64,000 nucleotides of DNA. It comes from a virus. Lineage: Duplodnaviria > Caudoviricetes. A program made the position numbers and the translations under genes. The stretch's first letter is position 1. Each line of letters starts with the position of its first letter. This document shows, piece after piece, positions 8,507-42,025 of the stretch. The DNA is taken from positions 3,247 to 67,246 of IMG/VR virus record IMGVR_UViG_3300009101_000006; one strand, given 5' to 3'. The notes below the pieces were generated by a model, which was given only the letters and a program-made list of their open reading frames with translations, ran no database searches and had not been told where the DNA came from.

Positions 8507-8558
8507 GGGGCAATGCCAGTAGCACGCCCGCCCACCCGTGGCAATCCCCGCCAGCCCG

Positions 8559-8601
8559 ATTATTGGTTTATCAGATTTTCCTACGCGCGCGTACGTGAGG
8601 A
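8559..8601. repeat. 43-bp element, copy 1 (direct repeat of 42261-42304)
   Basis: ATTATTGGTTTATCAGATTTTCCTACGCGCGCGTACGTGAGGA is identical to copy 2 except for one C indel. Confidence 0.95.
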
Positions 8602-8780
8602 CAGAAGGTGACCACGCGCGCGAGCAAATTTTCCAATAAACCGATATCACGCTTACGCTACAAGGGGTTAGCACCCCCCGATGCCCTCGAACTTATTGAT
8701 AATCGCTCCTGAACCAGCTCCAAAACTCCAATCCCGCTCACCTCTGGTTGTGTACAATCGCTCCCACGCCGACCCTTTCG

Positions 8781-9124: not shown

Positions 9125-9583
9125 ATGATCCTGCCCAGATACTTCACGGCCGTCGCGTCGGTCGACGCTGATCGAGTCGTGTCCTTCCTGGTGCGACGCG
9201 CCCTGCGCCTGTCGCGCCGTCCCATGATCTACGCTCTGTCGGAGCGTGGCCTCGGTCAGGCCGACCTCGTCCTCGCGCTCCTGCGCGTGGGCACGCGTCC
9301 GGCTCTCGATCTCGTCGCGCGCGTGGTCGGTCGGCCTGTGCTGCGCTGTCCCAGTCAGTATCTGCGCTGGCCCGTCAACGGCGTGCCCCGAGTGGTCGTT
9401 CCGCGAATCCGTCTGGTGGTGGACAATCCGCGCCGACCGAACACCGACGCCCACGACCGCTTCGCGGCCGCGTTCCGGGACGGAGCGACGATCGAGGCGT
9501 GCAGGGCGCGCGGCGCCACTCGCCGAGACGTACGACGCGCTCTGCGCGAGGGCTGGATAGTCGTCGAGGGGAGAGCGGCGTGA
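9125..9583 (+). CDS. Hypothetical protein with C-terminal NPRR-type small domain (paralogue 1 of 4)
   Basis: GGAGAG RBS before ATG 9125; C-terminus RIRLVVDNPRRPNTDAHDRF...GATIEACRARGA. Confidence 0.75.
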   Translation: MILPRYFTAVASVDADRVVSFLVRRALRLSRRPMIYALSERGLGQADLVLALLRVGTRPALDLVARVVGRPVLRCPSQYLRWPVNGVPRVVVPRIRLVVDNPRRPNTDAHDRFAAAFRDGATIEACRARGATRRDVRRALREGWIVVEGRAA

Positions 9584-9804
9584 GAAAGATGCTCGCCCTG
9601 CTCCCCGTCGTCGCGCTCGCCGGATGCGTGGAACACGGGGAGTGTCTGTCGTCACACACGGAGTTGCAGACGGTCACGATCCCTGTCTACACGCTCGCGT
9701 CGTGCGGCAGCGGGTGTTCGGTGATGGTCAACGCGGGAATGATCCCCGTCACCAGAGCCGTCAACGTCTGTGATCGCTGGGAATTTCCCGAGGGGAGGAA
9801 GTGA
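9580..9804 (+). CDS. Small Cys-rich lipoprotein
   Basis: MRKMLALLPVVALAG|C lipobox; GTGA overlap with previous stop. Confidence 0.7.
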   Translation: MRKMLALLPVVALAGCVEHGECLSSHTELQTVTIPVYTLASCGSGCSVMVNAGMIPVTRAVNVCDRWEFPEGRK

Positions 9805-10064
9805 TGCCGGAGCTGTCGCTCAGGAGAAACGGAGCCGTGTTCAGCGGCTCCGTGGTCGTCGGGTACGTCGAGACGTGTCCGAGGTCCAGTTCTCACGCCT
9901 TCATGTGGCGTCTCGCCATGAGAAGCGAGGCGCTTCGCGGACTTCCGTCCGGGCACTGCGACTCGCCGCACGACGGACTGGAGCGAGTCGTGGCCGCGTT
10001 CCGCGGCTGGTGTGCGGCGGCCGGACTCGCCGAGCAGAACATCGTCAGGGGAGAAGTAGAATGA
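9801..10064 (+). CDS. Hypothetical protein
   Basis: Coupled ORF, 87 aa. Confidence 0.6.
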   Translation: MMPELSLRRNGAVFSGSVVVGYVETCPRSSSHAFMWRLAMRSEALRGLPSGHCDSPHDGLERVVAAFRGWCAAAGLAEQNIVRGEVE

Positions 10065-15283: not shown

Positions 15284-16018
15284 TCAGGCCGCCTTGCCGC
15301 CCTCGAGCTTCACGTCCTTGTCGGCGATCGCGCGCTTCAGGGTCGCTGGCTCGCCGCCCGCCGCCAGCCACGTCTTGACGGTCTTGCCGCTGTGCTTGCG
15401 CAGGAGCTCGCGGCGCTCGTGACGCGGCGTGCCCTCGCGGGCGCCGTTGCCCTCTGCGGTGCGGATCCAGTTGATCTTCGCGGTCTCGTCGATCTTGGTG
15501 CGCTTCGGCGCCTTCTCGGCCTTGGTCGCCTTCTTGGCGGGAGCCGCCTTAGCCGCCTTCTTGGCCGGAGCCTTCTTCGCGGCCTTCTTGGCCGGAGCCT
15601 TCTTCTCGGTGGTCGCCACGGTATCTTCCTTCTCGTTGCTGGCCGGGGCGGTCGCCTCCGGCTTGGATTTGGACTTGGACTTCTTGCTACCAGCCGCCCG
15701 CTTGGCGGTCTTCTCCGACGATTCCTCGCCGTCGTTGCCGTGCTGGGTTCCCTTGTACGCCTCCCCGGAGGCAGTGGCAAGGGCCATTCTCTCGCGGTGC
15801 TCGGTCAGGGCGTCGTGCAGCCGCTGACAGACGACGCGACCGAGATCGACGTCCTCGATCTCGACCAGAACGTCCTCCGGCGGCTCGTAGCCGAGATCGG
15901 ACGCGGTCGCCAGCATCTGGCTGTGAATGTCCTGCAACCCGAGCAGATTGAGACTGTTGAAGTCGGCGGCGACGATCGCCGGAGTGCCGTCGGTCGTGGT
16001 CTGGTTCTTCTTGGCCAT
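15284..16018 (-). CDS. Histone H1-like Lys/Ala-rich protein with C-terminal NPRR-type domain (paralogue 2); in-frame internal start
   Basis: KAPAKKAAKKAPAKKAAKAAPAKK repeats; own RBS (GGAG) before ATG 16018. Confidence 0.8.
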   Translation of the reverse strand: MAKKNQTTTDGTPAIVAADFNSLNLLGLQDIHSQMLATASDLGYEPPEDVLVEIEDVDLGRVVCQRLHDALTEHRERMALATASGEAYKGTQHGNDGEESSEKTAKRAAGSKKSKSKSKPEATAPASNEKEDTVATTEKKAPAKKAAKKAPAKKAAKAAPAKKATKAEKAPKRTKIDETAKINWIRTAEGNGAREGTPRHERRELLRKHSGKTVKTWLAAGGEPATLKRAIADKDVKLEGGKAA

Positions 16019-16477
16019 CTGATTCTTCTCCGTGTGGGTTGACGCTGTGGATACTGCGCGTCCGGTCGGGCTGACCGGCCAGACGTACTCGAGATCGGGC
16101 GGCTCGGTCCAGCCGAACTGCCCGTAGTGCGCGGGCGCCTTGCGCAGCAGATTGCTGCGATGCGACCGGTGGAACGCCTCGTCGCCGAACCACGGCGGCG
16201 GATGATCATTGTCGGCGTGGACGAGCATCCACGGAACCTTGATCGAGTTTGCGTAGCCTCGCCGCGTCCACTCCCGGACGATCTCGTCCATGTACCGAAC
16301 GAGACAGCCCTCGTGACCCTGCCACATGAGAACGGCCGGATGGTGCGCCCAGCCGGAGCCGGGCACGGTGAGCGCCTGAAGGATCTGCCTGCACTCCAGG
16401 CGCTGCTTCCCGAGCCGCTGGCGGTCGAGGCAGCGCGCGGACTGCTTGAAGTTCGCGCAGGGCAGGAACGTCTGCAT
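15284..16477 (-). CDS. Pyrimidine-dimer DNA glycosylase-like (DenV/MSMEG_6728 type) domain reading in frame into the H1-like protein
   Basis: MQTFLP...LDRQRLGKQRLECRQIL...HPAVLMW...HRSNLLRK...YVWPV with no stop codon before MAKKNQ. Confidence 0.8.
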   Translation of the reverse strand: MQTFLPCANFKQSARCLDRQRLGKQRLECRQILQALTVPGSGWAHHPAVLMWQGHEGCLVRYMDEIVREWTRRGYANSIKVPWMLVHADNDHPPPWFGDEAFHRSHRSNLLRKAPAHYGQFGWTEPPDLEYVWPVSPTGRAVSTASTHTEKNQMAKKNQTTTDGTPAIVAADFNSLNLLGLQDIHSQMLATASDLGYEPPEDVLVEIEDVDLGRVVCQRLHDALTEHRERMALATASGEAYKGTQHGNDGEESSEKTAKRAAGSKKSKSKSKPEATAPASNEKEDTVATTEKKAPAKKAAKKAPAKKAAKAAPAKKATKAEKAPKRTKIDETAKINWIRTAEGNGAREGTPRHERRELLRKHSGKTVKTWLAAGGEPATLKRAIADKDVKLEGGKAA

Positions 16478-16884
16478 CAGACAACGCGCCTCCTCTTGCG
16501 ATCCCAGCCCCTGGTCTCGCCGTTGATCAGAAACGCGCACGTCTCCGCGTCTCGCGCGACCTCGCACAGGTCCGAGATGTCGGTCGCCGGCGCGAACCGC
16601 TCCTGCGAGAACGCGGCCTCGGCGCGGAATTTTCGCACCCCGAAGACGTAGTCCACCGCGACGTTGGCGATCTCCACGAGCAGCAGGCACGGCGGTCCCG
16701 CCATCTCGTACGCGGGCGGCGGGTCCACGTAGCCGCGAACGCGATATCGCACGCCAGCCGTCGGACGCGTGATGCTCTGACCGTGCGTCCGCCACCACGC
16801 GCTGTCGAACTCGTCGTCGAAGCAGATGATCTGCTGTCCGACGTAGAACATCTTCTTCTGATTGTATTCCCTCTGTTCTCCCAT
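16477..16884 (-). CDS. Hypothetical protein
   Basis: MFYVGQQIIC...FSQERFAP, a common phage small-protein pattern; coupled genes. Confidence 0.65.
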   Translation of the reverse strand: MGEQREYNQKKMFYVGQQIICFDDEFDSAWWRTHGQSITRPTAGVRYRVRGYVDPPPAYEMAGPPCLLLVEIANVAVDYVFGVRKFRAEAAFSQERFAPATDISDLCEVARDAETCAFLINGETRGWDRKRRRVV

Positions 16885-25723: not shown

Positions 25724-25927
25724 CTACTTCTCCAATTGCTTGAGCAGTTCGTCCGTCTCGTCGACGCGCTCCATGTACGCGTCGTACATCTCCACGTTCT
25801 GGCCGCACGTGCGGGCAATCATGTAGAACGCCGTTCGCTGATTGCGAAGTATCTGCTCGATCATCATGAGCTGAAGTGCTCCGTCGTTCAGTTTGAACTT
25901 GATCGGTGGTTTCGATGTCTTCGCCAT
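25724..25927 (-). CDS. Small hypothetical protein
   Basis: GGGAGG RBS, coupled. Confidence 0.55.
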   Translation of the reverse strand: MAKTSKPPIKFKLNDGALQLMMIEQILRNQRTAFYMIARTCGQNVEMYDAYMERVDETDELLKQLEK

Positions 25928-26481
25928 CAGACTCCCTCCCACTTGGTTCTCGTGTTCACGTAGCTCATGATCGCCGGCCGCAGCTCGGGGCTCCTGGACG
26001 CTGCGACCGGGTCGAGCTCCTCGAGTCGCTTGCTGGCGGCCAGGATGCATCGCGCTGCGATCACCCGGCCGTAGCGATTGCCCATGTTCATCTCCCGGAG
26101 TCCGTACTCCCACATCTCGATGAACTCGACGATCTTGAAGACGCTCTCCTCGAACTCGGTGAGCACCTGATCCTTCGGAAGACCGAAGACACGACGCATG
26201 TCGTCACGAACCACGCGCTCAGCCATGTCGTGCGCCGCCTTCATGCCGAAGATACGCTGCTTGAACGGGTACTGCACGTCGCCCGCCATCTCGCCGATGT
26301 CGTGCGTGACGGCGTGCACCAGCATTCTGCGGGGGCAGTCCGGCCACACGGTGAGCAGAATGCGCATGATCTGCGCACTGTGCTCGCCGACGGACTGCCG
26401 TCGATGCACTGGCCACGAGTGATAACGCGTCAGCTCGAGGCCGGCTCTCGGATCCTCCGAGACGTTGAGATCACTGCTCAC
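25927..26481 (-). CDS. HD-domain nucleotidase (YfbR-like)
   Basis: QSVGEHS...HAVTHDIGE...GDV motifs. Confidence 0.85.
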   Translation of the reverse strand: MSSDLNVSEDPRAGLELTRYHSWPVHRRQSVGEHSAQIMRILLTVWPDCPRRMLVHAVTHDIGEMAGDVQYPFKQRIFGMKAAHDMAERVVRDDMRRVFGLPKDQVLTEFEESVFKIVEFIEMWEYGLREMNMGNRYGRVIAARCILAASKRLEELDPVAASRSPELRPAIMSYVNTRTKWEGV

Positions 26482-27548
26482 TTCGCGTATCTCCTGCCGA
26501 GCCACGCGACGCACGCCTCGCGCCAGTCCGGTGCCTGGATCTGGAGAGCCTGTGTAATCGCCTCCTCGCGCTCGCCGCGTCTGTGATGCGCGTGAGCCAG
26601 CGCCGCAGTGCACGCCACGTCGGAGAACCACGCGTTCGAGAAGTCCGGGATCAGAGACGCGAAGGCATTGTCGTGCCACGTCATGAACACCCGGAGATCG
26701 TCGTCCCACGCGTCCCAGGCATCGCCGATCGGAGTGGAATCCGGAATCGGTAGCAGACGCTGGTACTCCGCCACGAGATCCTCGGGACTCCCGAGACGAT
26801 CGAGAGCGCCGACGTAGGCGTGGAAGTTGTTCGAGAACTGATACATCTTGCCGACGCCGACTCCGATGCGGCCGGCGAGATATTCCTGGAGCACGCTGAA
26901 GTGAACGGCGTTGGCGCCGTACGCGCCCCAGATCATGTCGTTGCTGCGACAGCAGACGGTCAGATCGAGAACAAGACCACGACATTCAGTCCCATCGTGC
27001 TCCATCTGGAATTCTCCGTCGCCGCGCACGCGAAGATAGACGTGCGTGTTGCACGGCCGATCCTTCCAGTTGCCGGTCAGATCAGCCCGGTAGATCTCGG
27101 GCTCCTGCGTCGGCAGCGAGAAGGGCCCCACGTCCCACATCTGTATCACGCACTGACGATCCTGAGGATTGCGCCGGAGCTTCTCGACCACGACGCGAAG
27201 TTGATCGATGCCCAGCCCGCCGCGCCATCGCTTGCCGTAAGCGCCGTGGATCACGCCGCCACGCTCCGCGAAGCGCGATCCGAAGTCTCGGACGTAGACG
27301 TCAAGAAACGCGGAGTCGTCGCGACCTGCGAGCATCCACAGACTCTCCATCAGGTGGAAGAACGGATTGGCGTCGCGCGTCGGCGACATGAGGACGCGTC
27401 GCGTCGGATTCTCGTAGACCGACACGACCGGGAACGGCGCGACGATCACGTCGCCCGCCCGGCTGGATTCGCGGTGACCGATCTCGGCCAGCATGATCGC
27501 TCCGAGCGACAGCATCTCGTTGACGTCGTATCCTTCGATGACAAACAT
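26478..27548 (-). CDS. Thymidylate-synthase-family dUMP hydroxymethylase (putative)
   Basis: NPFFHLMESLWMLAGRDD, GAYGKRW, DRPCN catalytic Cys, CRSND..WGAYGAN (Asn at the dUMP-specificity position), NNFHAY. Confidence 0.85.
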   Translation of the reverse strand: MFVIEGYDVNEMLSLGAIMLAEIGHRESSRAGDVIVAPFPVVSVYENPTRRVLMSPTRDANPFFHLMESLWMLAGRDDSAFLDVYVRDFGSRFAERGGVIHGAYGKRWRGGLGIDQLRVVVEKLRRNPQDRQCVIQMWDVGPFSLPTQEPEIYRADLTGNWKDRPCNTHVYLRVRGDGEFQMEHDGTECRGLVLDLTVCCRSNDMIWGAYGANAVHFSVLQEYLAGRIGVGVGKMYQFSNNFHAYVGALDRLGSPEDLVAEYQRLLPIPDSTPIGDAWDAWDDDLRVFMTWHDNAFASLIPDFSNAWFSDVACTAALAHAHHRRGEREEAITQALQIQAPDWREACVAWLGRRYAK

Positions 27549-27551
27549 GAG

Positions 27552-27929
27552 CTAGACTCCCTTCTTCTGAAGCTTTTTGACGACTTCCTTGAGCATGAAC
27601 ATATGCTCCCGTGTCTCCGGCGTGATCTCACCGAGCACGGCGACCAACTGATCGTACTCCCCGATCAACTCGCTCTCCATGCCGGTGACAACTCTGACGA
27701 ACTCGTTCCTGGCCTCCGGAGATCCCGGATCGATGACCGTGCCACCGATAGATCCCTGAACGATCAGCGCCAGGATGACCGTCTTCAGATACTCGTCACC
27801 GGCGTCGGCGCACAGACCGCAGGAGGATGCCGAATCGACGAACGCGCTTCTGACCATCTGCGCAGCGACGCACAGACGAGCACTCAATTCTCCATTCTGG
27901 CCGCACGAACAATCAGCCCTCTTGAACAT
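27552..27929 (-). CDS. Hypothetical protein
   Basis: GGAGG RBS; coupled within cluster. Confidence 0.6.
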   Translation of the reverse strand: MFKRADCSCGQNGELSARLCVAAQMVRSAFVDSASSCGLCADAGDEYLKTVILALIVQGSIGGTVIDPGSPEARNEFVRVVTGMESELIGEYDQLVAVLGEITPETREHMFMLKEVVKKLQKKGV

Positions 27930-28386
27930 TCTTGCCTCCGTTGAATTGGACAAAGAGTTCCTCGAGAAGAAGCCCCGCGAGCTCGCGGTGCCTCGAACTA
28001 TTGTACCACATATTTCTACCACTCGGATGCGGGAGTTGTCGCCACGTGGTCCCACCGATTATCTGCGGCTCGATCAGCAGTCGGGGGTGGCCGAAGCACC
28101 GACGCACGTCCTCGCCGAGCAGCACGACGACACGGTCAACGCCGAACAGCTCGGCGCTTATGCGCGCGGCCTCGTCGCGTCCCAGGGCACTGCTCCAGCT
28201 CCGTCCCGTGACGAGATTGCGCCGCTCGAACGTCTCGAGGTACGCGCGGCGCGAGACATGCGGCAGCCGACCCTGTAGCATCTTCCAGAGTCGGTGACCC
28301 GTGCAGCCCTCCGGATAAGGATAGAGCTGATGTCCGTCCTCGCTCGAGATCGGATTGTTCATGCCGATCAGGATGGGCTTCTTCAC
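27913..28386 (-). CDS. Uracil-DNA-glycosylase-superfamily protein
   Basis: ILIGMNNP...TGHRL...VVVLLG...LPHPSGRN motifs. Confidence 0.75.
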   Translation of the reverse strand: MKKPILIGMNNPISSEDGHQLYPYPEGCTGHRLWKMLQGRLPHVSRRAYLETFERRNLVTGRSWSSALGRDEAARISAELFGVDRVVVLLGEDVRRCFGHPRLLIEPQIIGGTTWRQLPHPSGRNMWYNSSRHRELAGLLLEELFVQFNGGKNVQEG

Positions 28387-29090
28387 GCTGCGTCTCCATC
28401 CACGATTCTGGCCCCGGACGCCGCGATGCTCTCTGGCGTTCCCCAGTCCAGGAACGAACTCGCGTGCGCGCACTTGAACACAGCGCTCATCTTGGCGAGC
28501 GCCGCCGACAGATACGGCTCGTTGTGATTGCGACACACGAACTGAAGCGCGTCGCGGAGCTGACGAGACGAGCGGAATGCCCACGCGCCGACCATGGCGT
28601 GGGCGCTGATCGCGCGCTTCTCCGCGAAGCGCGTGGGGAACGGGAAGCTGTTCACGTAGGAGTATGCCTCGGACTTGGACTCCGTCGTGAGAATTCCGAC
28701 GTCGGCACTATTGTAGGAGACCTGTTCGCACGTGCGCACAATGTCTTCGAGGCAGATCACCATGTCGCAGTTCATGACGAGCACCGGAACGTCAGCGAAT
28801 CGTTCCGGTGTCGTGGCGTCCAGGGCGCACAGTACGGCGTGCGCCTGCCCCCGCGAGTTGTGAACGACGATCGAGCAGTGCGGGGCGTCGGGTCCGACGG
28901 AGTGTGGATGAGCTGCGATCACGACCGGACCGACCGCGCTGAAAGGGATCTCGTCGAGAACCCAGTCCAGCATCTTCTTTTTCTCACCGTTGAACTCGAT
29001 CACGAGATCTGGTTTCGGGGTCGCGTAGCCCGCGTCGCGGAATCGCCGGCTGGTTCCGGCGGCTGGGACGATCAGTCTGAACTTGTTCAC
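28383..29090 (-). CDS. Sugar/alcohol-phosphate nucleotidyltransferase (NTP_transferase fold)
   Basis: LIVPAAGTSRRFRDAGYATPKP, VMNCD, FLDWGTPE. Confidence 0.85.
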   Translation of the reverse strand: MNKFRLIVPAAGTSRRFRDAGYATPKPDLVIEFNGEKKKMLDWVLDEIPFSAVGPVVIAAHPHSVGPDAPHCSIVVHNSRGQAHAVLCALDATTPERFADVPVLVMNCDMVICLEDIVRTCEQVSYNSADVGILTTESKSEAYSYVNSFPFPTRFAEKRAISAHAMVGAWAFRSSRQLRDALQFVCRNHNEPYLSAALAKMSAVFKCAHASSFLDWGTPESIAASGARIVDGDAA

Positions 29091-29749
29091 GACAAGTGCT
29101 CCCTCAGTTGGTCTCGGATGTGCGACGCCCAGACTCGCTCTTCCAGAGCGTTCGGCGACGCCGCGATCCTGGACATCATCACGAAGACCCAGAAAGCAAT
29201 TCTCGGGATCGTGTTGTTGCCGACGTACAGGAAGCTCGGCTCGTGCCAGACCACGTGCTCCGTCTGGTAGCCCGTCATGATCTCCCAGCCCATCATGGAC
29301 TGGACGATGCGCGCCTGATCGACGACAGCGATCTGCGGAACGCGCTCCGGGTAGACCGGGTCGCCGAACACCATCGTCCGACCGTGTTCGGTCTGCCGGA
29401 GCATGGTGTTGCAGAGCGTGAGGTCGCCGTGCACGGCGCACGGGCGCTCTCCGATCCACGTCCAGTCCGGCGCTTCGATCTCGAGAGTATCCCGAAGACA
29501 GGAGCGCCATTCTGCCGTTGACACAGACACTGCCGGACGATGATTCCAGAACGAGGCCGCGGCGATGTACGCGGCCTCGGACGCCCACTCCGGATCCGTA
29601 GGACACGGCAGCAGCAGCTCCATCGCGAAGCCGTCATCCCATCGCGCCAGAATCTCCGGAACGCGATCACTCGCGACGGCGGCGAGACGATCGAGATACT
29701 CGAGCTGACCCGCGCACTTCGGCCCCTGCTTGATCACCGCCAGATCCAT
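29087..29749 (-). CDS. APH/choline-kinase-like phosphotransferase (start may be further upstream)
   Basis: VIKQ, HGDLTLCNTML (Brenner motif), VFGDP. Confidence 0.8.
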   Translation of the reverse strand: MDLAVIKQGPKCAGQLEYLDRLAAVASDRVPEILARWDDGFAMELLLPCPTDPEWASEAAYIAAASFWNHRPAVSVSTAEWRSCLRDTLEIEAPDWTWIGERPCAVHGDLTLCNTMLRQTEHGRTMVFGDPVYPERVPQIAVVDQARIVQSMMGWEIMTGYQTEHVVWHEPSFLYVGNNTIPRIAFWVFVMMSRIAASPNALEERVWASHIRDQLREHLS

Positions 29750-30533
29750 CCTGCTCCCGCTTCTGCCCTTCTCGAAGGGCGGCCTCCCATCGAATGACCA
29801 CTTCGTTGCGGGGATGGCCCTTGTAATCTTTGCGGACCACGCGGACGAGTCCCGGATGAAGGCACGAAAGGAGTTCGGCGTCAGCGTCTGAAGACGCGGT
29901 GCTCCGCTGTCCTGTGCAGCCGCCGCGAGCGGCGTATTCGTTTGACTGCTCGGCGACGAAGGTGTGACAAACGGCATTGGGATAGCCCTTCCTGAGAAGC
30001 TGAAGAACGTAGTCCATGTCCTCGCGGGTCTCGATCCTGCCGCTGAGGTCGCACTCGCGACGCACGGTCGGCAGGTGATAGCCCAGAACGTACTGCATCC
30101 GCTTGGCGTGCTGCCAGCCGGGCTCCTTCGCGTTGTTGAACAGACGCGAGCCGAATCCCGCGTGTGCGTACTGTTGTGGCGCTGGTCCGATCATGTCGGC
30201 GAGCTGCCGAAACCAGTAGACCACCTCGTCTGCCGTCGGCGTGCGCAGGCGCTTCGGGTCCTCCTCGCGCTTGACGAAGAACCGGAGGTCGTCGTCCAGC
30301 ATCACGATGCGATCAGCGCCCCGCCAATCGCGCATGATCCGCGCGCGCTTGGCCGCGATCGTCATCGCATCGTCCTGCTGGACGACGACGCGCGCCCACG
30401 GGCGCATGTCCTCGTGACGATGCGCCTCGTTGGACGGACAGACGATGTAGATATCCTTGCGAAGCTCTCTCGGAAGCCTGTCGCACGTGAGAGCGAGGTC
30501 CCACCGACCCCGCGTCGGAATGATGATGTCCAC
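29667..30533 (-). CDS. GT-A-fold glycosyltransferase (TAGT/GREB1-like), paralogue 1
   Basis: IIIPTRGR, IVMLDDDLRF, EDMDY, GGC motifs. Confidence 0.8.
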   Translation of the reverse strand: MDIIIPTRGRWDLALTCDRLPRELRKDIYIVCPSNEAHRHEDMRPWARVVVQQDDAMTIAAKRARIMRDWRGADRIVMLDDDLRFFVKREEDPKRLRTPTADEVVYWFRQLADMIGPAPQQYAHAGFGSRLFNNAKEPGWQHAKRMQYVLGYHLPTVRRECDLSGRIETREDMDYVLQLLRKGYPNAVCHTFVAEQSNEYAARGGCTGQRSTASSDADAELLSCLHPGLVRVVRKDYKGHPRNEVVIRWEAALREGQKREQDGSGGDQAGAEVRGSARVSRSSRRRRE

Positions 30534-30544
30534 TGAAGTTCTCC

Positions 30545-31099
30545 CTAGAAGTCCTGGATCTGCTGCGCGTCGCCCTCGAACAGACGCCGAACGGTGGCGG
30601 CCGACTGCTCCCGGTCACCGACGTGCACATTGTAGCCCAGACGTCGGTACTCCGCAATCTCGCGAATTGCCTTACGGTGCGTGACACCGACGTAGTCCAC
30701 GGACCTGGACTGCCCCTTGGCCCGGAACCCCGCTTCGCACTCGGACAACGGCAGATCGACGAACACCAGATGCAGCTCCACGTCCCTCCTGTCGTGGAGA
30801 GCCCTCAGGTGGATCTTATCGTCGCGGTTGTTCATGCCCTCGAACAGAATGTCGTTCCCCATGTCCAGATATTTCCTAATCCAGGCGTGCGCCGCCCGCA
30901 GATCAAGCATCGTGTCGAGCCCGCCGTTCTGGATCTCGTAGTGTCCGGGGACGAACAGACCCTTGCCGGCAATATAACCCAGCGGCTTCCGCCGATGTAG
31001 AACATGAATCGCCTCGCACGAACCGCGATCGTTCATGTAGCTGCGAACGAGAGTGGATTTCCCGGCGCCGCACGCGCCACGCACGTTGACGACGATCAT
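30545..31099 (-). CDS. P-loop nucleotide kinase
   Basis: RGACGAGKST Walker A, GHY..QNGGLDT, ILFEG. Confidence 0.85.
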   Translation of the reverse strand: MIVVNVRGACGAGKSTLVRSYMNDRGSCEAIHVLHRRKPLGYIAGKGLFVPGHYEIQNGGLDTMLDLRAAHAWIRKYLDMGNDILFEGMNNRDDKIHLRALHDRRDVELHLVFVDLPLSECEAGFRAKGQSRSVDYVGVTHRKAIREIAEYRRLGYNVHVGDREQSAATVRRLFEGDAQQIQDF

Positions 31100-31851
31100 C
31101 GATAAGCCCTCGCCCAGTTAACACGAGTCGACCATCCAGAGATCGAGCTCTTGTTGTCCGTGTTGATGCTGACCGTGTCCGGCCACAAGCGTGCAAACTT
31201 CTCGAACTCCGCGCGCTCGAACTCCGGCGTTCTCCAAGTCGAGCACCCCCCGCTCGCGTTGTACTTGCTTCCCTTTGTCCAGTCGGTGAGGACGATCGGC
31301 TTGTACCCCGAGCGCGCGAGCTGGAGATGGAGGTCGTGTTCCTCGTTGATCGCGAGCCGAAAGGCGGGGGAATACTTCTCGCGCGCGAACAGGTAGTGTC
31401 CGAGGTCGTAGGCGAGCACCTGATTGTAGCGTCCACCGACCTTGTGCCCGCGCGGCTGGTGTTGACACATGAACTCGTCGGCGATGCCCGCGTGCGGCGT
31501 CGTGGCGAGCGCGATGCCGAGCGTGCGGATCATGAGAGAAATGTCATCGGGCTTCGCGGACACGAATCTGTCGTCCGTGGCATAGCGACGTCGGAACCTG
31601 AGGTCGTCGTCCAGCATCACGATCTTGTGGCCTCGCCACTTGTTGATGATCCACTGGCGCTTCTGGCCGATGTGACTGCACTCGACGCCGTGGATCTTCA
31701 CGTCGAATCTTGAGCGATGTTCCAGCACGGCCTTCGCGTAGTCCTGCGCCTCGGTCGTCGGCACGACGATGTTCACGGAGGTGCCGTGCTCGATGCTGTC
31801 GAGCGTTCGGACTGCGTTCGCGCGTCCGCGACTCGGTATCACGATGATCAT
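31096..31851 (-). CDS. GT-A-fold glycosyltransferase (TAGT/GREB1-like), paralogue 2
   Basis: IVIPSRGR, IVMLDDDLRF, EEHD, GGCS motifs. Confidence 0.8.
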   Translation of the reverse strand: MIIVIPSRGRANAVRTLDSIEHGTSVNIVVPTTEAQDYAKAVLEHRSRFDVKIHGVECSHIGQKRQWIINKWRGHKIVMLDDDLRFRRRYATDDRFVSAKPDDISLMIRTLGIALATTPHAGIADEFMCQHQPRGHKVGGRYNQVLAYDLGHYLFAREKYSPAFRLAINEEHDLHLQLARSGYKPIVLTDWTKGSKYNASGGCSTWRTPEFERAEFEKFARLWPDTVSINTDNKSSISGWSTRVNWARAYR

Positions 31852-32135
31852 GCGTTGTCCTTTCTTAGCGTGAGAACGACCACGTCTCCAATCTGGAGTC
31901 CGACCGGCTTGCGCGAGATGATTTTCTGCGAATCGGCCTTCTTCCCGTGTTCGGGGTTGAAGAACGGCGCCGTCACGCGCATGCTCGCCGGCCACCCCTC
32001 GAACGTCGCCCACCATCCCTCGGATTCGGTCTCGAAGATCGCGTCCTGGCCGTAGCCCGACACGTACCGGCGCCGGACCTTCTCCTCCAGGGACACGATC
32101 TTGGCTCGAAAAGATGCTTCGAATATGGTTGTCAC
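31848..32135 (-). CDS. Hypothetical protein
   Basis: GTGA overlap with upstream stop; 95 aa. Confidence 0.6.
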   Translation of the reverse strand: MTTIFEASFRAKIVSLEEKVRRRYVSGYGQDAIFETESEGWWATFEGWPASMRVTAPFFNPEHGKKADSQKIISRKPVGLQIGDVVVLTLRKDNA

Positions 32136-33070
32136 TGGAATCTCCCCTTCATCCTGCCCTGCCCGAGCCTGACGCGCTCGTACTTGTCGAACTCGCAGAG
32201 AGTATGCTCCACGTCGCGCAGCTCCCAGAGCGGCCACTCTCGGGGCCACATTCTAGCACCGCGCGAGAGCACCAGCAACTCCCGCATGCCCCCGATCAGC
32301 TCCTCGCGGGACATGGTCTTGTCCTTGTAGTCCTTTCCGAGAACGCGGTTGAGTCCGCGCCGGGCGCCAGGACCGGGATTTGCCCAAGTCATGATGTCTG
32401 GAGCACGTTCGAGCAGCCGCGTGTGACGAAGATCCGTTACGATCTCGTAGCTGTGAAACCTTCCAAGATAGTCGTGACACGACAACCACTCCCAGACATA
32501 TTCCAGTGGCTGGGAAGTCTGTGCGAGTGTCACGGCGAATTGTCGCCACTTGACTTCGTTGTCGTTGTTGACAAATTTGTTCAGAATCTCGAGCACACCG
32601 TTCAGCTTCGTGTACCCCGGTGGACTGCTGATAATATATGCGCCGGTCACATATGGACCGGAGCCGCAGTGCGCGAGGATCGCTCTTCGCAGATGCGCCA
32701 CCTTGCCCGTGTGCAAGAACAGATCGAACGCCGTGACATAGTCGTAGTCACTCCGTGTACGGAAGACAGAGCGCATACCGCCCATGCCTACCATGTCCGT
32801 CTGACAGAAGATCGCCTCGCCGGTGCTGATGCGGTTGAACATGCGGAACACGACCGTGGCGAGAAGCACCTCCGGCCGGTTCCGCAGTGGATCGCGGACG
32901 TGCTCGCGGAACCACTTCGTGGTCCGGTCGTCCTCGCGGAACACGTTGCAGAATCTTCCGGTCTGGAGGATCTTGTCCCGTGTCCACGGACGAGGGAGTC
33001 CAGCCGACCGGTTCAGGTGGATCTGGTATCGCTCTCTCGCGTACTCGAAGAACCGATCGGCTCGTTTCAT
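32132..33070 (-). CDS. 5-hydroxymethyluracil DNA kinase-like protein (aGPT-Pplase1 / HMUDK helical family)
   Basis: ERYQI...PWTRDKIL...RFCNVFREDDRTT...FRMFN, F.SYEIVTDL, PGPGARRGL, EHTLCEFDKY. Confidence 0.85.
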   Translation of the reverse strand: MKRADRFFEYARERYQIHLNRSAGLPRPWTRDKILQTGRFCNVFREDDRTTKWFREHVRDPLRNRPEVLLATVVFRMFNRISTGEAIFCQTDMVGMGGMRSVFRTRSDYDYVTAFDLFLHTGKVAHLRRAILAHCGSGPYVTGAYIISSPPGYTKLNGVLEILNKFVNNDNEVKWRQFAVTLAQTSQPLEYVWEWLSCHDYLGRFHSYEIVTDLRHTRLLERAPDIMTWANPGPGARRGLNRVLGKDYKDKTMSREELIGGMRELLVLSRGARMWPREWPLWELRDVEHTLCEFDKYERVRLGQGRMKGRFQ

Positions 33071-36671: not shown

Positions 36672-36913
36672 CTGTCAATCCCCGGCTTCATGAAGTCAGG
36701 CCACGGGCGCTCGCCGCGGAGACACTCGAAGTATTCACGATCCGCTGCTTCGACGAGACGATGCCCACCCCACACCTCGCGGATGCGAAGAATGATGAAT
36801 ATCATGTGCTCCACGCCCTCCTTCATGTCACCCATGTTCTCGAGAAGATCAACACCTCGATACGTCTTCTTCTCGTCGTCCGTCAGACAGTGCTGATAAC
36901 TCCCCGCCATCAC
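36668..36913 (-). CDS. Hypothetical protein
   Basis: Coupled ORF. Confidence 0.55.
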   Translation of the reverse strand: MMAGSYQHCLTDDEKKTYRGVDLLENMGDMKEGVEHMIFIILRIREVWGGHRLVEAADREYFECLRGERPWPDFMKPGIDR

Positions 36914-37446
36914 TCAATCTCCAATATCTTCTTGCGACTGAGCTCGGGGCAGTCGCACTCCCCGCACGGAATTATCGCACGGGCGCAGGACTCCCGCAAG
37001 GTCATGCCAGTGTTGATGATCACCTGCACCGCGCGGTCGTCCCACTGCTCGATCATGTCGGCGTCCTTGAAGCACTGCACGGGCAGGCGCGGAAGTCCGT
37101 GTCGCTCGCAGTGGTCGCGAACGGCCTCCGCCATCATGTGATCAGAGAAGTTCATGCGCGTCACGCGGCACTTGCCAGTGAACTCGCGGCTGTAGATATT
37201 CTCGAAGTTGGCAGTTTCGTCGGCAGATGCCATCACGGGCAGTCCGACGCGCGCCGTCACGATCTTGACGAGAATCCCGGCCTCGTGCCACGCGAGCACG
37301 CGATCGATCATCGGCCTGATGGGCTCGCCGAACACGTTCCAGCCGACCCAGTGGGTATATGTGAACATCGTGCCGTCCAGGTCCACGCCGATCCAGCCGC
37401 CGCTCCGCGCGAGTCTCAGGTATCTCTCGGGTATCTCGATCTTCAT
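36910..37446 (-). CDS. HAD-superfamily phosphatase
   Basis: IGVDLDGT motif I, IVTAR motif II, K...WDDRAVQV. Confidence 0.8.
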   Translation of the reverse strand: MKIEIPERYLRLARSGGWIGVDLDGTMFTYTHWVGWNVFGEPIRPMIDRVLAWHEAGILVKIVTARVGLPVMASADETANFENIYSREFTGKCRVTRMNFSDHMMAEAVRDHCERHGLPRLPVQCFKDADMIEQWDDRAVQVIINTGMTLRESCARAIIPCGECDCPELSRKKILEIE

Positions 37447-37679
37447 GACTTTTCCTTTCTTATGAGAACAGCGCCATCTGGGAGCTTGTTCTCGTAGTAG
37501 ATCCAGTTGTGCACGCCGCTCGCAGACGGACACTCGTCGTCGCCGTAGCAGTACAGACAATCCCCGCACTCGTCGCAGAAATCTTCGCCGCAGACTGGCG
37601 CCGCCCTTTCCACGTGTCCGATGATCTCAGTTCCATGAGAATCGTACACCGGGACAAGATGCGGCGCCAAGCTCACCAC
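37443..37679 (-). CDS. Small Cys-rich protein
   Basis: CGEDFCDECGDCLYC. Confidence 0.55.
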   Translation of the reverse strand: MVSLAPHLVPVYDSHGTEIIGHVERAAPVCGEDFCDECGDCLYCYGDDECPSASGVHNWIYYENKLPDGAVLIRKEKS

Positions 37680-38137
37680 GACGCTCGCTCCCGGATGTCG
37701 TCCTGCGTCTGGAACAGAACGGGATGGGCCGGACGCCGCCAGTCCAGCGCCAGCGGGATCAGCCAGTGAAGATTACCGACGACGGGAATGCCGCTCAATC
37801 GAGTTCCGACGTCGTGGAACATGAGGTGCTCGCCGGCGTCGTTGTAGATCGGGATCGAGTGCACACGTCCGCGCCAGTCGATGCGCGACCAGTAGAAGTG
37901 AACCACGTAGTCCCGGCCCATCTCGGTCGCGAAGTGTCGCCACTCCTCCTGTTTCGTCTCGACGCCGACCTCCTCGCGAAATTCGCGGACCATGGCGTGC
38001 ACGGGTGTCTCGTGGTCGTCCGCCTTGCCGCCGACACCGTTCCACAATCCGTGTTGCCACTCGGGCGTCTCCTTGCAGACGAGCAGCACATTCTCGTCGT
38101 GGAAGGCGAATCCAGCCACCATTGTCTTCATAGCCAT
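37673..38137 (-). CDS. Nudix hydrolase
   Basis: GGKADDHETPVHAMVREFREEVG Nudix box. Confidence 0.9.
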   Translation of the reverse strand: MAMKTMVAGFAFHDENVLLVCKETPEWQHGLWNGVGGKADDHETPVHAMVREFREEVGVETKQEEWRHFATEMGRDYVVHFYWSRIDWRGRVHSIPIYNDAGEHLMFHDVGTRLSGIPVVGNLHWLIPLALDWRRPAHPVLFQTQDDIRERASW

Positions 38138-38815: not shown

Positions 38816-40404
38816 AGATCTTCTCCCTTCATGCGCGGCGTGGCCGCCTCCTGGGTCCGTGATACCGCGGAGCTCGGAATCCACCAAAGACTCCGGTAGC
38901 CGATCCCCTTGATGTTGATGCCGTGGTGCGCACCACCCATCTTCCGTATCAGGCTCGTGATGCGCCCGCGATGTTTCGCGAGATCCTTCATGCCGTCCCG
39001 ATCGAGAATCTTCTGGAGCGACGACAGCTTGAAGTAGTGTCGCCCGTTCTCCTCGTCCTCCCACGGACGCCCCTGAGCCAGATCCTCGATCACGCGCCCG
39101 CGCTGCCGGTTCGTCAGGAACGTCTCGAGAAGCTCCGTGAACTGACTTCCCGGCGCCAGATCGTCCGGCGTCTCGAGGATCTCGAGATTCTGCATCACGT
39201 CGTTGAGCACGCCGAACCACACGTTCTGCGATATGATAGCGAACGACTTGTGAACATACTCCATGCACAGACGATGGAATCTGTGATAGTTCTGAAGATC
39301 CTCCGTGGACATCGGTATCTTGGCGCCCTCGACGTCGACAAACCACAGCGGCGGCTCGCTGTTCAACTTCGATATGTGCTGGATCTGCGGATACGTGCCG
39401 CCCGCCCCCACGCCGAACTTGCGCGATCGGCACTGCATCGCGTCGCAGTGGCTCTGCATCGGCTGGTCCTTGCACTTGTACTGGTAGTCCTTCCGTTCCA
39501 GGGACTTGATCGTGACCGCCAGCTTGTCGATCGGATACGGCGGATCGCAGTGATCGTGCGCCGACTTCTCCAATCGCTGCGCCCAGTCGTCCGGAAACTT
39601 GCGCTTGTAGTACACGCCGAGATGAAACAGAAAGTTGTTCTGCCCGCCCTGCTTCACGCCCCCCGACATCACTAGATGTTGGATGCAAGGAGGTCCATCG
39701 GTAAACGGGGGCTTCTCCTTCCGGGGCTTCCGGGATCCGTTGCTGTTCTCGCTGCGAAAGGTTGCGAAGTCTTCGGGACGAACGCGCATGCGCTCGGCCT
39801 CGTGCAGGAATTCGGACAGGGTCATCTCGGCGCCCGTGCGCTTGAGCCCGGCCTGCATCCGCAGCTTGTCGCCGTAGGTCGTGCCGCAGTACGGCATGAC
39901 TATCCAGCTCGGCTTCTCTCCGCGATCTGCGAGCAGCTTGGTCTGCTTCGGAAAGATTTCGGAGTTCGCGTATCCTATGCTCGCCATCATCTCCCGAAGC
40001 GTGGACTGCATGAGCGCGGCCTCGACGGGCTCCGTCGAGAACAAGAACAGATGCAACCCGCCGGACTTGCTGCGGCACGGAAGCAGCGGATATTTCCGCT
40101 CGGTCACGCGTCGTATGATCTCGTCGTGATCCGCGTCGTAGTCGTCGATGTCTCCACTTCCCCAGACGCATCTGTTGTCGTTGCGAATAGGTGCCACGCC
40201 GAGCGGCAGCGTGTTCATCTCGGACAGGTGTCTCGTCCAGAGCGCGGGTGTAGCCGCTCCGCTCAGAGTCTTGGCCGTCGAGCGTATCTCCCATTTCACG
40301 CCACCCTGGGGATCGAGCGTCGGCTCTCCGTGCGTTCCGTGATACTGCTCGTTTCCCGCGAACAGTTCTGACATCCTCTCCGCGTCTGATTTCTTGGCAG
40401 GCAT
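38812..40404 (-). CDS. Archaeo-eukaryotic-type primase (TOTE-like AEP) with PriCT-like domain
   Basis: GSGDIDDY, RSKSGGLHLFLF, EIFPKQ, GPPC...NNFLFHLGVY. Confidence 0.8.
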   Translation of the reverse strand: MPAKKSDAERMSELFAGNEQYHGTHGEPTLDPQGGVKWEIRSTAKTLSGAATPALWTRHLSEMNTLPLGVAPIRNDNRCVWGSGDIDDYDADHDEIIRRVTERKYPLLPCRSKSGGLHLFLFSTEPVEAALMQSTLREMMASIGYANSEIFPKQTKLLADRGEKPSWIVMPYCGTTYGDKLRMQAGLKRTGAEMTLSEFLHEAERMRVRPEDFATFRSENSNGSRKPRKEKPPFTDGPPCIQHLVMSGGVKQGGQNNFLFHLGVYYKRKFPDDWAQRLEKSAHDHCDPPYPIDKLAVTIKSLERKDYQYKCKDQPMQSHCDAMQCRSRKFGVGAGGTYPQIQHISKLNSEPPLWFVDVEGAKIPMSTEDLQNYHRFHRLCMEYVHKSFAIISQNVWFGVLNDVMQNLEILETPDDLAPGSQFTELLETFLTNRQRGRVIEDLAQGRPWEDEENGRHYFKLSSLQKILDRDGMKDLAKHRGRITSLIRKMGGAHHGINIKGIGYRSLWWIPSSAVSRTQEAATPRMKGEDL

Positions 40405-40466: not shown

Positions 40467-41396
40467 TCACATGTCGTCGGAGCCCGAGCCCGCTTCGCCG
40501 TCGTCGGTCTGGTTGGAATCGGGGGCGTCGGCCTTCAGGGCGCCGGACGCGAAGTCCGCGTGGATCTTCTTCGCGGCGCGGTAGATAGCGAGATCGTCGA
40601 CGAACATCGGAACGGCGCTGCCGTCCTCCTCGCCGGCGTGGGATGCGCGGTAGCCGTACCAGCTTCCCTGATCGTTCTTCTTCGGGACGGTCTGGAGCCG
40701 GTACACGCAGGCGTAGCTCGGCGCGGTCGTGTCGTTGGGCAACAGCACGTTGTTCATGAGACCCATCCACTCCCGCGACGCCGTGTGGTTGGTCGACACC
40801 ATGGGGACGACGAGCGCAGTCGGGCGACCGCCGTTGACCTTGGGATCCACGACCAGGAAGACATGCTCTCGCGTCTCCACGACCGTGTTGCCGTTCGGCA
40901 TCTTCCACGCCGTCCGTTCCTTGCCGGATTCCTTGCTGACCTCGGTCTTGAGCTCGGCGGCATCCGGACGCGACGGATGACGCGCGACGAAGCCGCCGCG
41001 ATCCGGCTTCCACTCGATCCAGCACTTGTTGAAGTAGCACGGAACGCCGAGCAGACCGCTGTCCTCGTTCTCCGTGTCGGCGTCGACGAACGTCATCGTG
41101 CCGCGCAACCAGAGGTCACCGGCCTTCGCGTCCTTGCCGAGATACTTGATCTTGTCGGCACGATCGAGTTGTGGTGAGTTGGACTGGATAATGTAGAGAA
41201 GCGGGACGATGTTGTCTTCCATCGCCGTGGAGACGCCCTTGCCCGCGTCGCCCTGCATCATCTTCAGGAGCTCGGGATCGGCTGGAAGACCGCCGCCCTT
41301 CTTCGTCGCCACGGCCTTGGACAGATTCGGCTTCTGCTCGGTCTGCTTGTCGGTCGACTTGTTCTTGGTCGCGGTGTTGCTGACACCCTTCGCCAT
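40467..41396 (-). CDS. Putative single-stranded DNA-binding protein
   Basis: Aromatic-rich beta core and acidic C-tail; position next to primase. Confidence 0.65.
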   Translation of the reverse strand: MAKGVSNTATKNKSTDKQTEQKPNLSKAVATKKGGGLPADPELLKMMQGDAGKGVSTAMEDNIVPLLYIIQSNSPQLDRADKIKYLGKDAKAGDLWLRGTMTFVDADTENEDSGLLGVPCYFNKCWIEWKPDRGGFVARHPSRPDAAELKTEVSKESGKERTAWKMPNGNTVVETREHVFLVVDPKVNGGRPTALVVPMVSTNHTASREWMGLMNNVLLPNDTTAPSYACVYRLQTVPKKNDQGSWYGYRASHAGEEDGSAVPMFVDDLAIYRAAKKIHADFASGALKADAPDSNQTDDGEAGSGSDDM

Positions 41397-41398
41397 AG

Positions 41399-42025
41399 TC
41401 ACTTCTCCTTCGCCTTCTTGATCTTTGCGACGCGCCCCACTGTTGCACCGAGCAGATCGAGCGGGGGCGTCTTGCCTTCTTCCTCGATCTGTTCCTTGAC
41501 GAACGCCGTGAGAGTATTCCACGGCACCCCGAATTCGTTCTTGACGCTGAGCTTCAGCTTGGTCGCCAGCTCGGTGATCTTCTTCTGCTGCGCGGCCGTA
41601 CCCTTGCCGCAACTGATCGTGATCGTGTTGCGCAGCATGCCGGGATGGTGCTTCCCGATCCACGCGAACGCCTTGCTGCGCTTCTCGTCCGGCCACTCCG
41701 CCGCGATGTTCGCGTGATAGTACGGTCCAACCTCGACCACGAAGGGCTTGTAGTTGCCCTCGGCCTCGAGAGTCATGTCGCGAACACCCGCGCCATCCAT
41801 GAGATCAACGAGTTCCCTCTCGGTGATCTCGAGACGACGCTGCTTGAGATGGGAGATCTTTTCCTCGAACTCCCCGATGTGAAGTTCGATGTCGCGCAGG
41901 ACACGCATCTTTCTACGTATGGTGTCCAGCTTGTCGGGCGACGCCCGACCTGCCGCGTCGTCGATCATCTCGGCGATCACGTCCTGGGGTGGACGCGGCG
42001 CGGCGCGTCCCAGTGGCTTCTTCAT
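41399..42025 (-). CDS. Conserved phage replication-module protein (coiled coil + beta domain)
   Basis: N-terminal coiled coil, VPWNTLTAFVKEQIE motif; adjacent to SSB. Confidence 0.7.
   Translation of the reverse strand: MKKPLGRAAPRPPQDVIAEMIDDAAGRASPDKLDTIRRKMRVLRDIELHIGEFEEKISHLKQRRLEITERELVDLMDGAGVRDMTLEAEGNYKPFVVEVGPYYHANIAAEWPDEKRSKAFAWIGKHHPGMLRNTITISCGKGTAAQQKKITELATKLKLSVKNEFGVPWNTLTAFVKEQIEEEGKTPPLDLLGATVGRVAKIKKAKEK

Follow-up and report, generated by a model that had tools for sequence, protein, structure and literature searches.

Introduction

The capacity of phages to make their own sugar donors for DNA glycosylation is an already published principle (PMC13326640; bioRxiv 10.1101/2023.12.21.572611). 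In particular, arabinosyl-5-hydroxycytosine is found in phages HY126, with the enzymes AfhE and AfhF, RB69, with gp52:53 and gp51, and DLP3, with gp82 and gp81, and the AfhE/AfhF route leads from arabinose-5-phosphate to arabinose-1,5-bisphosphate, arabinose-1-phosphate and finally UDP-arabinose (PMC13326640). RB69p052, the kinase half of RB69 gp52:53, is a homologue of AfhE, and MurU and LicC are among the structural matches for the RB69 and DLP3 enzymes (PMC13326640). In the metavirome 'contig 53' system of Pyle et al., the formation of heptosyl-5-hydroxymethylcytosine (heptosyl-5hmC) requires three enzymes, namely a bifunctional HAD-APH protein, a cytidylyltransferase and a DNA glycosyltransferase of the GT-B type (bioRxiv 10.1101/2023.12.21.572611; Cell Rep 2024), and the same authors list the APH phosphotransferase among the 'sugar modifying enzymes' found near viral DNA glycosyltransferases with ThyS (bioRxiv 10.1101/2023.12.21.572611). 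The present work deals with two adjacent genes, for a small kinase and a nucleotidyltransferase, in a 64-kb part (hereafter the window, meaning the whole stretch of 64,000 nucleotides) of the 67,246-bp IMG/VR virus record IMGVR_UViG_3300009101_000006, which is rated complete by CheckV. We consider it probable that the two enzymes form a donor-supply unit, in which a phage-made nucleoside diphosphate (NDP)-sugar would be put by TAGT enzymes on DNA containing 5-hydroxymethyldeoxyuridine (5-hmdU). This reading, each step of which we infer, amounts to the published AfhE/AfhF and heptose pathways in split form.

The locus resembles the AfhE/AfhF system in several respects. In both cases a phage APH-fold kinase and a nucleotidyltransferase would feed DNA glycosyltransferases encoded beside a thymidylate-synthase (TS) homologue; moreover, the kinases are detectably homologous, and a HAD partner is found in some relatives of the window. 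The differences are equally specific. AfhE combines both domains in a single chain that begins with the transferase, whereas the window has two genes in different frames with the kinase first; its genome contains neither an arabinose-5-phosphate isomerase nor an operon-encoded phosphatase; the predicted acceptor is 5-hmdU instead of 5-hydroxycytosine; the glycosyltransferases are of the GT-A TAGT type and not GT-B; and RB69p052 exceeds the kinase, which has no Gly-rich loop, by about 120 aa. With contig 53 the window shares a logic of kinase, phosphatase, nucleotidyltransferase and DNA glycosyltransferase. Unlike the window, contig 53 acts after replication, on 5hmC that a TET-like dioxygenase has produced; there the kinase and the HAD domain form one protein, and the glycosyltransferase is GT-B. 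The bacterial salvage pairs AmgK/MurU and NahK/GlmU and the choline pair LicA/LicC serve cell-wall recycling or teichoic-acid decoration in cells, and their enzymes have 280-360 aa and a full N-lobe; they have no detectable sequence similarity to the kinase of the window (phmmer against the PDB).

The kinase and the nucleotidyltransferase

A run of minus-strand genes extends from about 42 kb down to about 9 kb of the window. Within it the genes of interest follow each other, in order of transcription, as aGPT-Pplase1, TAGT_b, P-loop kinase, TAGT_a, kinase, nucleotidyltransferase, UDG-like gene, a small open reading frame (ORF), the TS homologue and an HD gene, with DNA polymerase I further downstream (coordinates in Table 1). 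The stop of the kinase and the start of the transferase share the sequence GTGA; the same junction recurs at 28386, between the nucleotidyltransferase and UDG-like genes, and at 26481, between the TS-like and HD genes. On the basis of these junctions, the kinase and the nucleotidyltransferase are part of a tightly coupled operon. The kinase starts with an ATG at 29749 that is preceded by GGGAG, and the nucleotidyltransferase with a GTG that is preceded by GAGGGAG. A first-pass annotation made from the letters of the window had described an ORF of APH/choline-kinase fold, with HGDLTLCN and FGDP, overlapping by 4 nt an NTP-transferase ORF with PAAGTSRRF and AGYATPKP. Both ORFs, the 4-nt overlap and all four motifs were recovered on the minus strand at the same coordinates, and the key residues of the motifs are invariant in the respective families.

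The proposed fold of the kinase was also borne out. The structural model, with a predicted local distance difference test (pLDDT) score of 97.2, is bilobal and protein-kinase-like with a helical C-lobe of the APH/choline kinase (ChoK) type, and the catalytic residues are kept, the Gly-rich loop being missing in the ORF as called. Structural comparison does not discriminate between APH, ChoK and FN3K, whose ranks are spread over less than 1.5 Z. Specifically, HGDLTLCN lies at residues 107-114 and FGDP at 128-131, so that both the catalytic loop HxDxxxxN (H107-G-D109-x4-N114) and the downstream metal-binding Asp (D130) are present. In 129 kinase sequences H107, G108, N114, D130, D144 and Q150 are invariant and D109 is conserved in more than 90%; the beta3 Lys (K7, in LAVIK), located on the first strand of the model, is invariant in a subset of 26 sequences.

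In terms of known families, the kinase is isolated. It has no match in Pfam (E <= 0.01), PHROGs or NCBIfam, no relative in the PDB by phmmer even at E <= 10, and no tblastn match among 50,697 phage records. The curated cut-off of Pfam APH (PF01636) is not reached, and 34 of the 129 homologues match this model weakly (best E 1e-4). The family is also rare: nine proteins were found at E <= 1e-3 in an index of 5.8 billion sequences, and 122 cluster representatives in an exhaustive HMMER search of 1.84 billion representatives. In the Atlas clusters most similar to the kinase, most rows are 94-100% viral and two structural rows are bacterial.

The relationship to the arabinose pathway emerges when the family profile is used. 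RB69p052 scores 43.7 bits (hhalign probability 96.6%), while the best chain of the whole PDB, a Bud32-like kinase, reaches 25.7 bits at the same database size. Moreover, RB69ORF052c is the third-best match among predicted viral structures, and several other viral structural matches, proteins of 440-635 aa with nucleotidyl or guanylyl transferase annotations, are kinase-transferase fusions. The near-neighbours in the ESM Atlas include two clusters, one of 616 aa ('sugar phosphate nucleotidyltransferase') and one of 511 aa that combines HAD and NTP-transferase domains. By these comparisons, the kinase family, which has had no name so far, has the RB69 homologue of AfhE as a specific relative, and its tie to the AfhE kinase domain is shown here by profile. 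The kinase itself is likely to be an anomeric kinase for a sugar or a sugar phosphate.

The nucleotidyltransferase carries PAAGTSRRF at residues 9-17 and AGYATPKP at 20-27, and has the N-terminal nucleotide-binding loop (GxGxR-like) and the conserved Lys. Among 22 homologues the motifs AAGxSxRF, PKP (25-27), GQA, D109, EK and DWGTP are conserved, with A10, A11, G12, S14, R16, K26, D109, E157, K158 and D215-P219 invariant; the roles of D109 as the mid-domain acidic residue, of EK as the sugar-phosphate motif and of DWGTP as the C-terminal metal motif are presumed by analogy with RmlA. The protein matches Pfam NTP_transf_3, a MobA-like model, with 37 bits (cut-off 27). By profile against the PDB, the transferase is nearer to the NDP-sugar pyrophosphorylase 4evw (36.8 bits) and to ST0452 (32.9) than to GlmU (20.6), IspD (18.9) or KdsB (12.6), and the alignment to Sulfolobus ST0452, a sugar-1-phosphate nucleotidylyltransferase, is full-length and includes the EK and D.G.P segments. 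Among cultured phages, tblastn matches it only to cyanomyovirus genes, whose annotations are NDP-sugar pyrophosphorylase, HAD hydrolase or phosphatase. The enzyme can be described, at the level of motifs and profiles, as sugar-1-phosphate nucleotidyltransferase-like, with all motifs of that class, and as closer to sugar-1-phosphate transferases than to the IspD, MobA or KdsB branches.

Conserved gene order in related loci

Related loci were collected with the alignments of the two proteins and annotated with local hidden Markov models. The transferase alignment retrieved 22 viral contigs and the kinase alignment five, all within those 22; a search of JGI metagenomes with the kinase alignment added only two contigs. 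The kinase lies directly upstream of the transferase in all 21 informative viral contigs and in both metagenomic ones. In all 23 informative loci, in fact, the common order is aGPT-Pplase1, one or more TAGT glycosyltransferases, kinase, nucleotidyltransferase and a dUMP-hydroxymethylase-like enzyme, and the kinase and the transferase are always separate genes. A TAGT_a-type glycosyltransferase stands directly upstream of the kinase wherever the locus is long enough, usually together with a second TAGT gene; aGPT-Pplase1 is found in all loci that reach that far; and on the other side the TS homologue comes after the transferase, usually with an HD protein and DNA polymerase I behind it. The module proteins of these relatives are only 27-37% identical to those of the window, and the GC content is 43% in one group of contigs versus 62% here. 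In addition, homologues of the kinase and of the transferase in the protein index come alike from contigs of 34,621, 16,364 and 4,412 bp, and are therefore on the same contigs. No relative of either protein was found in 185,579 prokaryote species genomes by a pattern-based scan, in which absence is weak evidence.

Some relatives carry additional genes within the pair. In four loci (L016, L017, L020 and L021) a HAD gene of 156-207 aa with a DLDGTL signature lies between kinase and transferase, and this order of kinase, HAD and transferase is the order of the reactions in the AfhE/AfhF route and in that of Pyle et al. In two others (L024, at 9279-10025, and L025) the intervening gene codes for a transaldolase/fructose-6-phosphate aldolase (TAL_FSA, 7e-35), whose product could feed sedoheptulose-7-phosphate or arabinose-5-phosphate into the pathway. 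As a separate observation, L021 has a sulfotransferase-like gene (8099-8767; RSGTT; Pfam Sulfotransfer_3, 1e-5) between glycosyltransferase and kinase, which hints at a sulfated sugar on DNA.

The same backbone is found in the thymidine-hypermodification clusters of two cultured phages, Pam3 of Pseudanabaena and the alphaproteobacterial phage PhiJL001, in which aGPT-Pplase1, a variable cassette, the TS homologue, the HD nucleotidase and DNA polymerase I are shared with the window. In Pam3 the cassette slot is occupied by Nmad5 (amino-acid route), with aGPT-Pplase2, threonine-dehydratase-like and photolyase-annotated genes further upstream. In PhiJL001 a single TAGT-like glucosyltransferase lies between aGPT-Pplase1 and the TS homologue, and tblastn detects no kinase or nucleotidyltransferase. 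Since both phages share the backbone without the pair, the latter behaves like an accessory element carried along with the glycosyltransferases.

The acceptor base

The nature of the acceptor can be approached through the TS homologue, which is 41% identical to that of Pam3 and 37% to those of M6-like Pseudomonas phages, with weaker matches to SP-10, where the protein is annotated as dUMP hydroxymethylase, and to ViI-like phages. A rule that links substrate to positions 169 and 177 of ThyA has been described (PMC13326640). In an alignment with E. coli ThyA, position D169 is occupied by Asp and position N177 by Asn in the homologue of the window; the RB69 5-hydroxy-dCMP synthase has Asn at 169. 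A function as 5-hydroxy-dCMP synthase was considered and rejected on account of these residues, that is, of Asp and not Asn at D169 and of Asn at N177. The enzyme is probably dUMP-specific, a hydroxymethylase that would supply 5-hmdU as the sugar acceptor, and the phage very probably replaces thymine with hydroxymethyluracil. Moreover, TAGT_a, encoded immediately upstream of the kinase, is the likely user of the NDP-sugar donor.

Proposed pathway and alternative explanations

According to the proposed pathway, the TS homologue would produce 5-hydroxymethyl-dUMP, from which the phage polymerase would then build 5-hmdU DNA. In parallel, the kinase would transfer a phosphate from ATP to the anomeric hydroxyl group of a sugar or sugar phosphate taken from the host, candidate substrates being arabinose-5-phosphate, heptose-7-phosphate and a free hexose or pentose. 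The first two are both precedented with APH-fold phage kinases and would be host metabolites if the host is Gram-negative. With a substrate phosphorylated beforehand, a HAD phosphatase (here perhaps the product of 36910-37446 or a host enzyme) would strip the distal phosphate; a direct anomeric kinase acting on a free sugar, on the other hand, would explain an operon without a phosphatase. The nucleotidyltransferase would then convert the sugar-1-phosphate and an NTP into the NDP-sugar, and the two upstream TAGT enzymes would transfer the sugar to the hydroxymethyl group of 5-hmdU, and perhaps also onto the first sugar. Translational coupling through GTGA would hold the ratio of kinase to transferase fixed.

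A number of points weigh against this reading. First, no HAD gene lies within the operon. The HAD-like gene at 36910-37446 could be the missing sugar-bisphosphate phosphatase; it lies 7 kb upstream of the pair, has no module linkage in relatives, and gave no significant match when compared with the HADs of L016-L021, RB69p051 and the PDB chains. Second, no SIS domain (arabinose-5-phosphate isomerase) was found in the whole 67-kb genome by a search that was positive for control genomes; together with the missing HAD gene, this leaves the AfhE/AfhF scheme incomplete here. Third, the nucleotidyltransferase shows, by the profiles compared, no specific relationship to that of RB69 (10.3 bits; hhalign probability 10%, confined to the N-terminal 104 columns). 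Fourth, the shared gene order could in part reflect the common descent of one phage lineage with a UvrD ... PolA backbone and not independent selection. Fifth, neither the nucleotide nor the sugar can be revealed by sequence alone. Finally, the kinase as called from the ATG at 29749 begins, in the model, at beta3, without the Gly-rich loop that clamps ATP, a point treated in the following section.

The first of the competing explanations is that the pair activates a non-sugar alcohol, such as choline, ethanolamine, glycerol or another polyol, in the manner of LicA/LicC, and that the DNA adduct is a phospho-alcohol. We hold this to be improbable. The rank of the kinase fold does not discriminate between APH, ChoK and FN3K. 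No choline kinase comes as near to the kinase profile as the RB69 kinase of the arabinose pathway does, and the HAD and transaldolase genes inserted in the pair of relatives suggest sugar phosphates. Moreover, the only group transferases of the operon are GT-A glycosyltransferases with a DDD motif, and no LicD-like or CDP-alcohol phosphotransferase family was detected in Pfam scans of 30 ORFs, small ones excepted, spread over 10.5-42 kb and outside the structural half of the genome. The first-pass annotation had suggested that the phage makes its own NDP-sugar, polyol or amino-alcohol donor for a DNA adduct. The idea of a phage-own donor, although already published as a concept, gains support from the fixed order in 23 of 23 loci, from the HAD and transaldolase insertions, from the viral fusions and from the kinship with the RB69 homologue of AfhE; as to its chemistry, a sugar or sugar phosphate is retained, while choline, ethanolamine and polyols are disfavoured by the transferases present.

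A second explanation, which we judge slightly less probable still, is that the kinase acts on DNA itself, either on 5-hmdU or on the attached sugar, and replaces the P-loop 5-hmdU DNA kinase (5-HMUDK), with the transferase capping or activating the resulting phosphate. It would fit with the placement of APH phosphotransferases next to DNA glycosyltransferases by Pyle et al., and with the distribution of the P-loop kinase (30545-31099), whose homologues are absent from all other module loci although aGPT-Pplase1 is present wherever the locus reaches. The phage of the window, however, carries the P-loop kinase and the APH-fold kinase together, and fusions of the kinase with sugar-phosphate nucleotidyltransferase and HAD domains, like the insertion of HAD and transaldolase genes, are typical of soluble sugar-nucleotide pathways. 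In addition, nucleotidyltransferases of this fold are not known to use a DNA-bound phosphate as substrate. The supply of a soluble NDP-sugar remains, in our opinion, the preferred reading of the pair.

The N-terminus of the kinase and the stranded Gly-rich loop

In none of the structural matches of the kinase does the alignment start before residues 35-45 of the solved enzyme. Relatives of the kinase carry GxSG 9-12 residues ahead of the beta3 Lys, and many of them begin with MGxSG, with the Lys 12 residues past the first Gly, as in MGRSGARLSLVVRK. The codons that directly precede the kinase ATG in frame in the window (29750..29770, minus strand) read K-G-R-S-G-S-R and are followed by M-D-L-A-V-I-K. 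In other words, the loop stranded upstream of the start has the motif and the spacing of the relatives, but an AAG replaces the ATG of MGRSG, and there is no in-frame ATG, GTG or TTG between 29977 and 29749.

Several observations bear on the actual start of translation. Four close homologues are called from the equivalent Met (M[DSQE]LAV[IV]K; MSL, MQL and MEL followed by AV[IV]K), others begin even later, and about ten homologues with 35-59% identity begin at or just past the position of the kinase ATG with all catalytic residues kept. Since close homologues start at the equivalent Met and a ribosome-binding site precedes the ATG, the evidence argues that the short form is a real product, apparently under purifying selection. 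On the other hand, the GC content at third codon positions (GC3), which is 0.8-0.9 in the kinase gene, favours the kinase frame already from about 29900 downward, and for this reason translation may start upstream at an unusual codon. A long ORF from the ATG at 29977 was judged unlikely on account of its 311-nt overlap with the glycosyltransferase gene, its Ser/Pro/Ala-rich N-terminal 76 aa and a ribosome-binding site poorer than that of 29749; GC3 neither clearly backs nor excludes this start. As for a programmed frameshift from the glycosyltransferase into the kinase frame, no slippery heptamer was seen by eye in 29750-29800. TAGT_a extends 83 nt into the kinase gene (29667-29749), and its last 33 residues are probably non-functional, given that they lie beyond the PHROG profile, are rich in Arg, Ser and Gly and have a low GC3 (0.52).

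The remaining explanation, that the kinase is crippled or vestigial in this clade through loss of the loop and that the transferase uses a host-made sugar-1-phosphate, draws on the in-frame loop codons behind the AAG and on the start of model and structural matches past the loop, and is the least probable of all in the face of some ten homologues that keep the catalytic residues from the same start, of the good ribosome-binding site ahead of the ATG and of the high GC3 of the gene.

A more specific form of the donor-supply reading can be put forward tentatively, as we consider it possible but clearly less probable than the general one. In this form, the sugar attached to 5-hydroxymethyluracil would be one, such as arabinofuranose or a heptose, for which the host has no nucleotide-activated form to offer, and the donor would be made by a minimal, stand-alone kinase that works without a Gly-rich loop. 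If true, such a kinase would be a first for the APH/choline-kinase fold. A base-J-like scaffold of this kind has, to our knowledge, never been shown chemically in a phage.

Other genes of the module and of the window

Table 1. Genes of the module and a candidate phosphatase gene, with their positions in the window.
Feature	Coordinates	Strand	Basis
aGPT-Pplase clade 1 protein (Pfam HMUDK_hel)	32132..33070	-	Pfam 3.7e-44; first gene of conserved module
TAGT_b, second TAGT-type GT-A glycosyltransferase	31096..31851	-	Pfam TAGT 1.4e-9; phrog_842; ATG 31851, AAGGA ribosome-binding site
P-loop kinase	30545..31099	-	AAA_33 weak; tblastn 30% identity to PaMx11 39232-39783
TAGT_a, TAGT-type GT-A glycosyltransferase	29667..30533	-	Pfam TAGT 2.7e-19; phrog_842 1e-38
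Kinase, choline-kinase/APH (protein-kinase-like) fold, 220 aa	29087..29749	-	Motifs, family invariants, fold matches
Sugar-1-phosphate nucleotidyltransferase-like enzyme, 235 aa	28383..29090	-	Pfam NTP_transf_3 5e-9; phrog_3980
UDG-superfamily-like protein	27913..28386	-	phrog_12275 8e-20; Pfam UDG weak, 0.0049
Small ORF	27552-27929		Operon member between UDG-like and TS-homologue genes
Thymidylate-synthase homologue, probable dUMP hydroxymethylase	26478..27548	-	Pfam and PHROG
HD-domain protein (YfbR-like 5'-deoxynucleotidase in relatives)	25927..26481	-	Homologous to L002 protein matching Pfam YfbR-like
Candidate HAD-type phosphatase	36910..37446	-	Pfam HAD weak, 9e-4; DLDGT and VTAR motifs

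The P-loop kinase gene is flanked by the two glycosyltransferase genes, and the glycosylating cluster to which it belongs has no aGPT-Pplase2, the amino-acid transferase. PaMx11 gp49 has been named 5-hmdU DNA kinase (PMC8989533), and the correspondence of gp49 with the PaMx11 coordinates matched here is assumed. In L016 and L017, homologues of the UDG-like protein are encoded on the upstream side of aGPT-Pplase1. The protein might help in base flipping or act as a glycosylase directed against unmodified bases.

Upstream of the UvrD-like helicase gene, the HAD-like gene is accompanied by one for a NUDIX hydrolase (37673-38137). Their products may clear dTTP or dUTP, or the HAD-like protein may serve the sugar pathway. 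The early region contains a 504-aa ORF (15284-16798) with a pyrimidine-dimer DNA glycosylase domain (Pyr_excise, 6e-24) inside a much longer protein. Finally, two ORFs at 40467-42025 match families like gp34 and gp33 of Pam3, which suggests a tie to the group of this Pseudanabaena phage; the GC content nonetheless points to a very different host.

Implications

The glycosylation of DNA determines which restriction, CRISPR and type IV systems cut a phage, so the identity of the sugar matters, and the published arabinose and heptose adducts demonstrate that phages are able to make their own donors. With the principle already published, the gain offered by the present locus is incremental and not conceptual. 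What is particular to it is the split and reversed arrangement of the two activities, the unnamed family of minimal kinases, the setting with 5-hmdU and TAGT enzymes, and the Gly-rich loop stranded upstream of the start.

Two families that have so far had no useful annotation, a kinase of about 220-260 aa and a nucleotidyltransferase of about 230 aa, receive here a testable function and a name. In addition, the relatives provide a natural series, from glycosyltransferase only to loci with the kinase and transferase, and further with the HAD phosphatase, the transaldolase or the sulfotransferase, along which substrate and product can be followed. In a more general perspective, the module would extend phage-made donors from cytosine derivatives to 5-hmdU, in a widespread lineage of uncultured phages.

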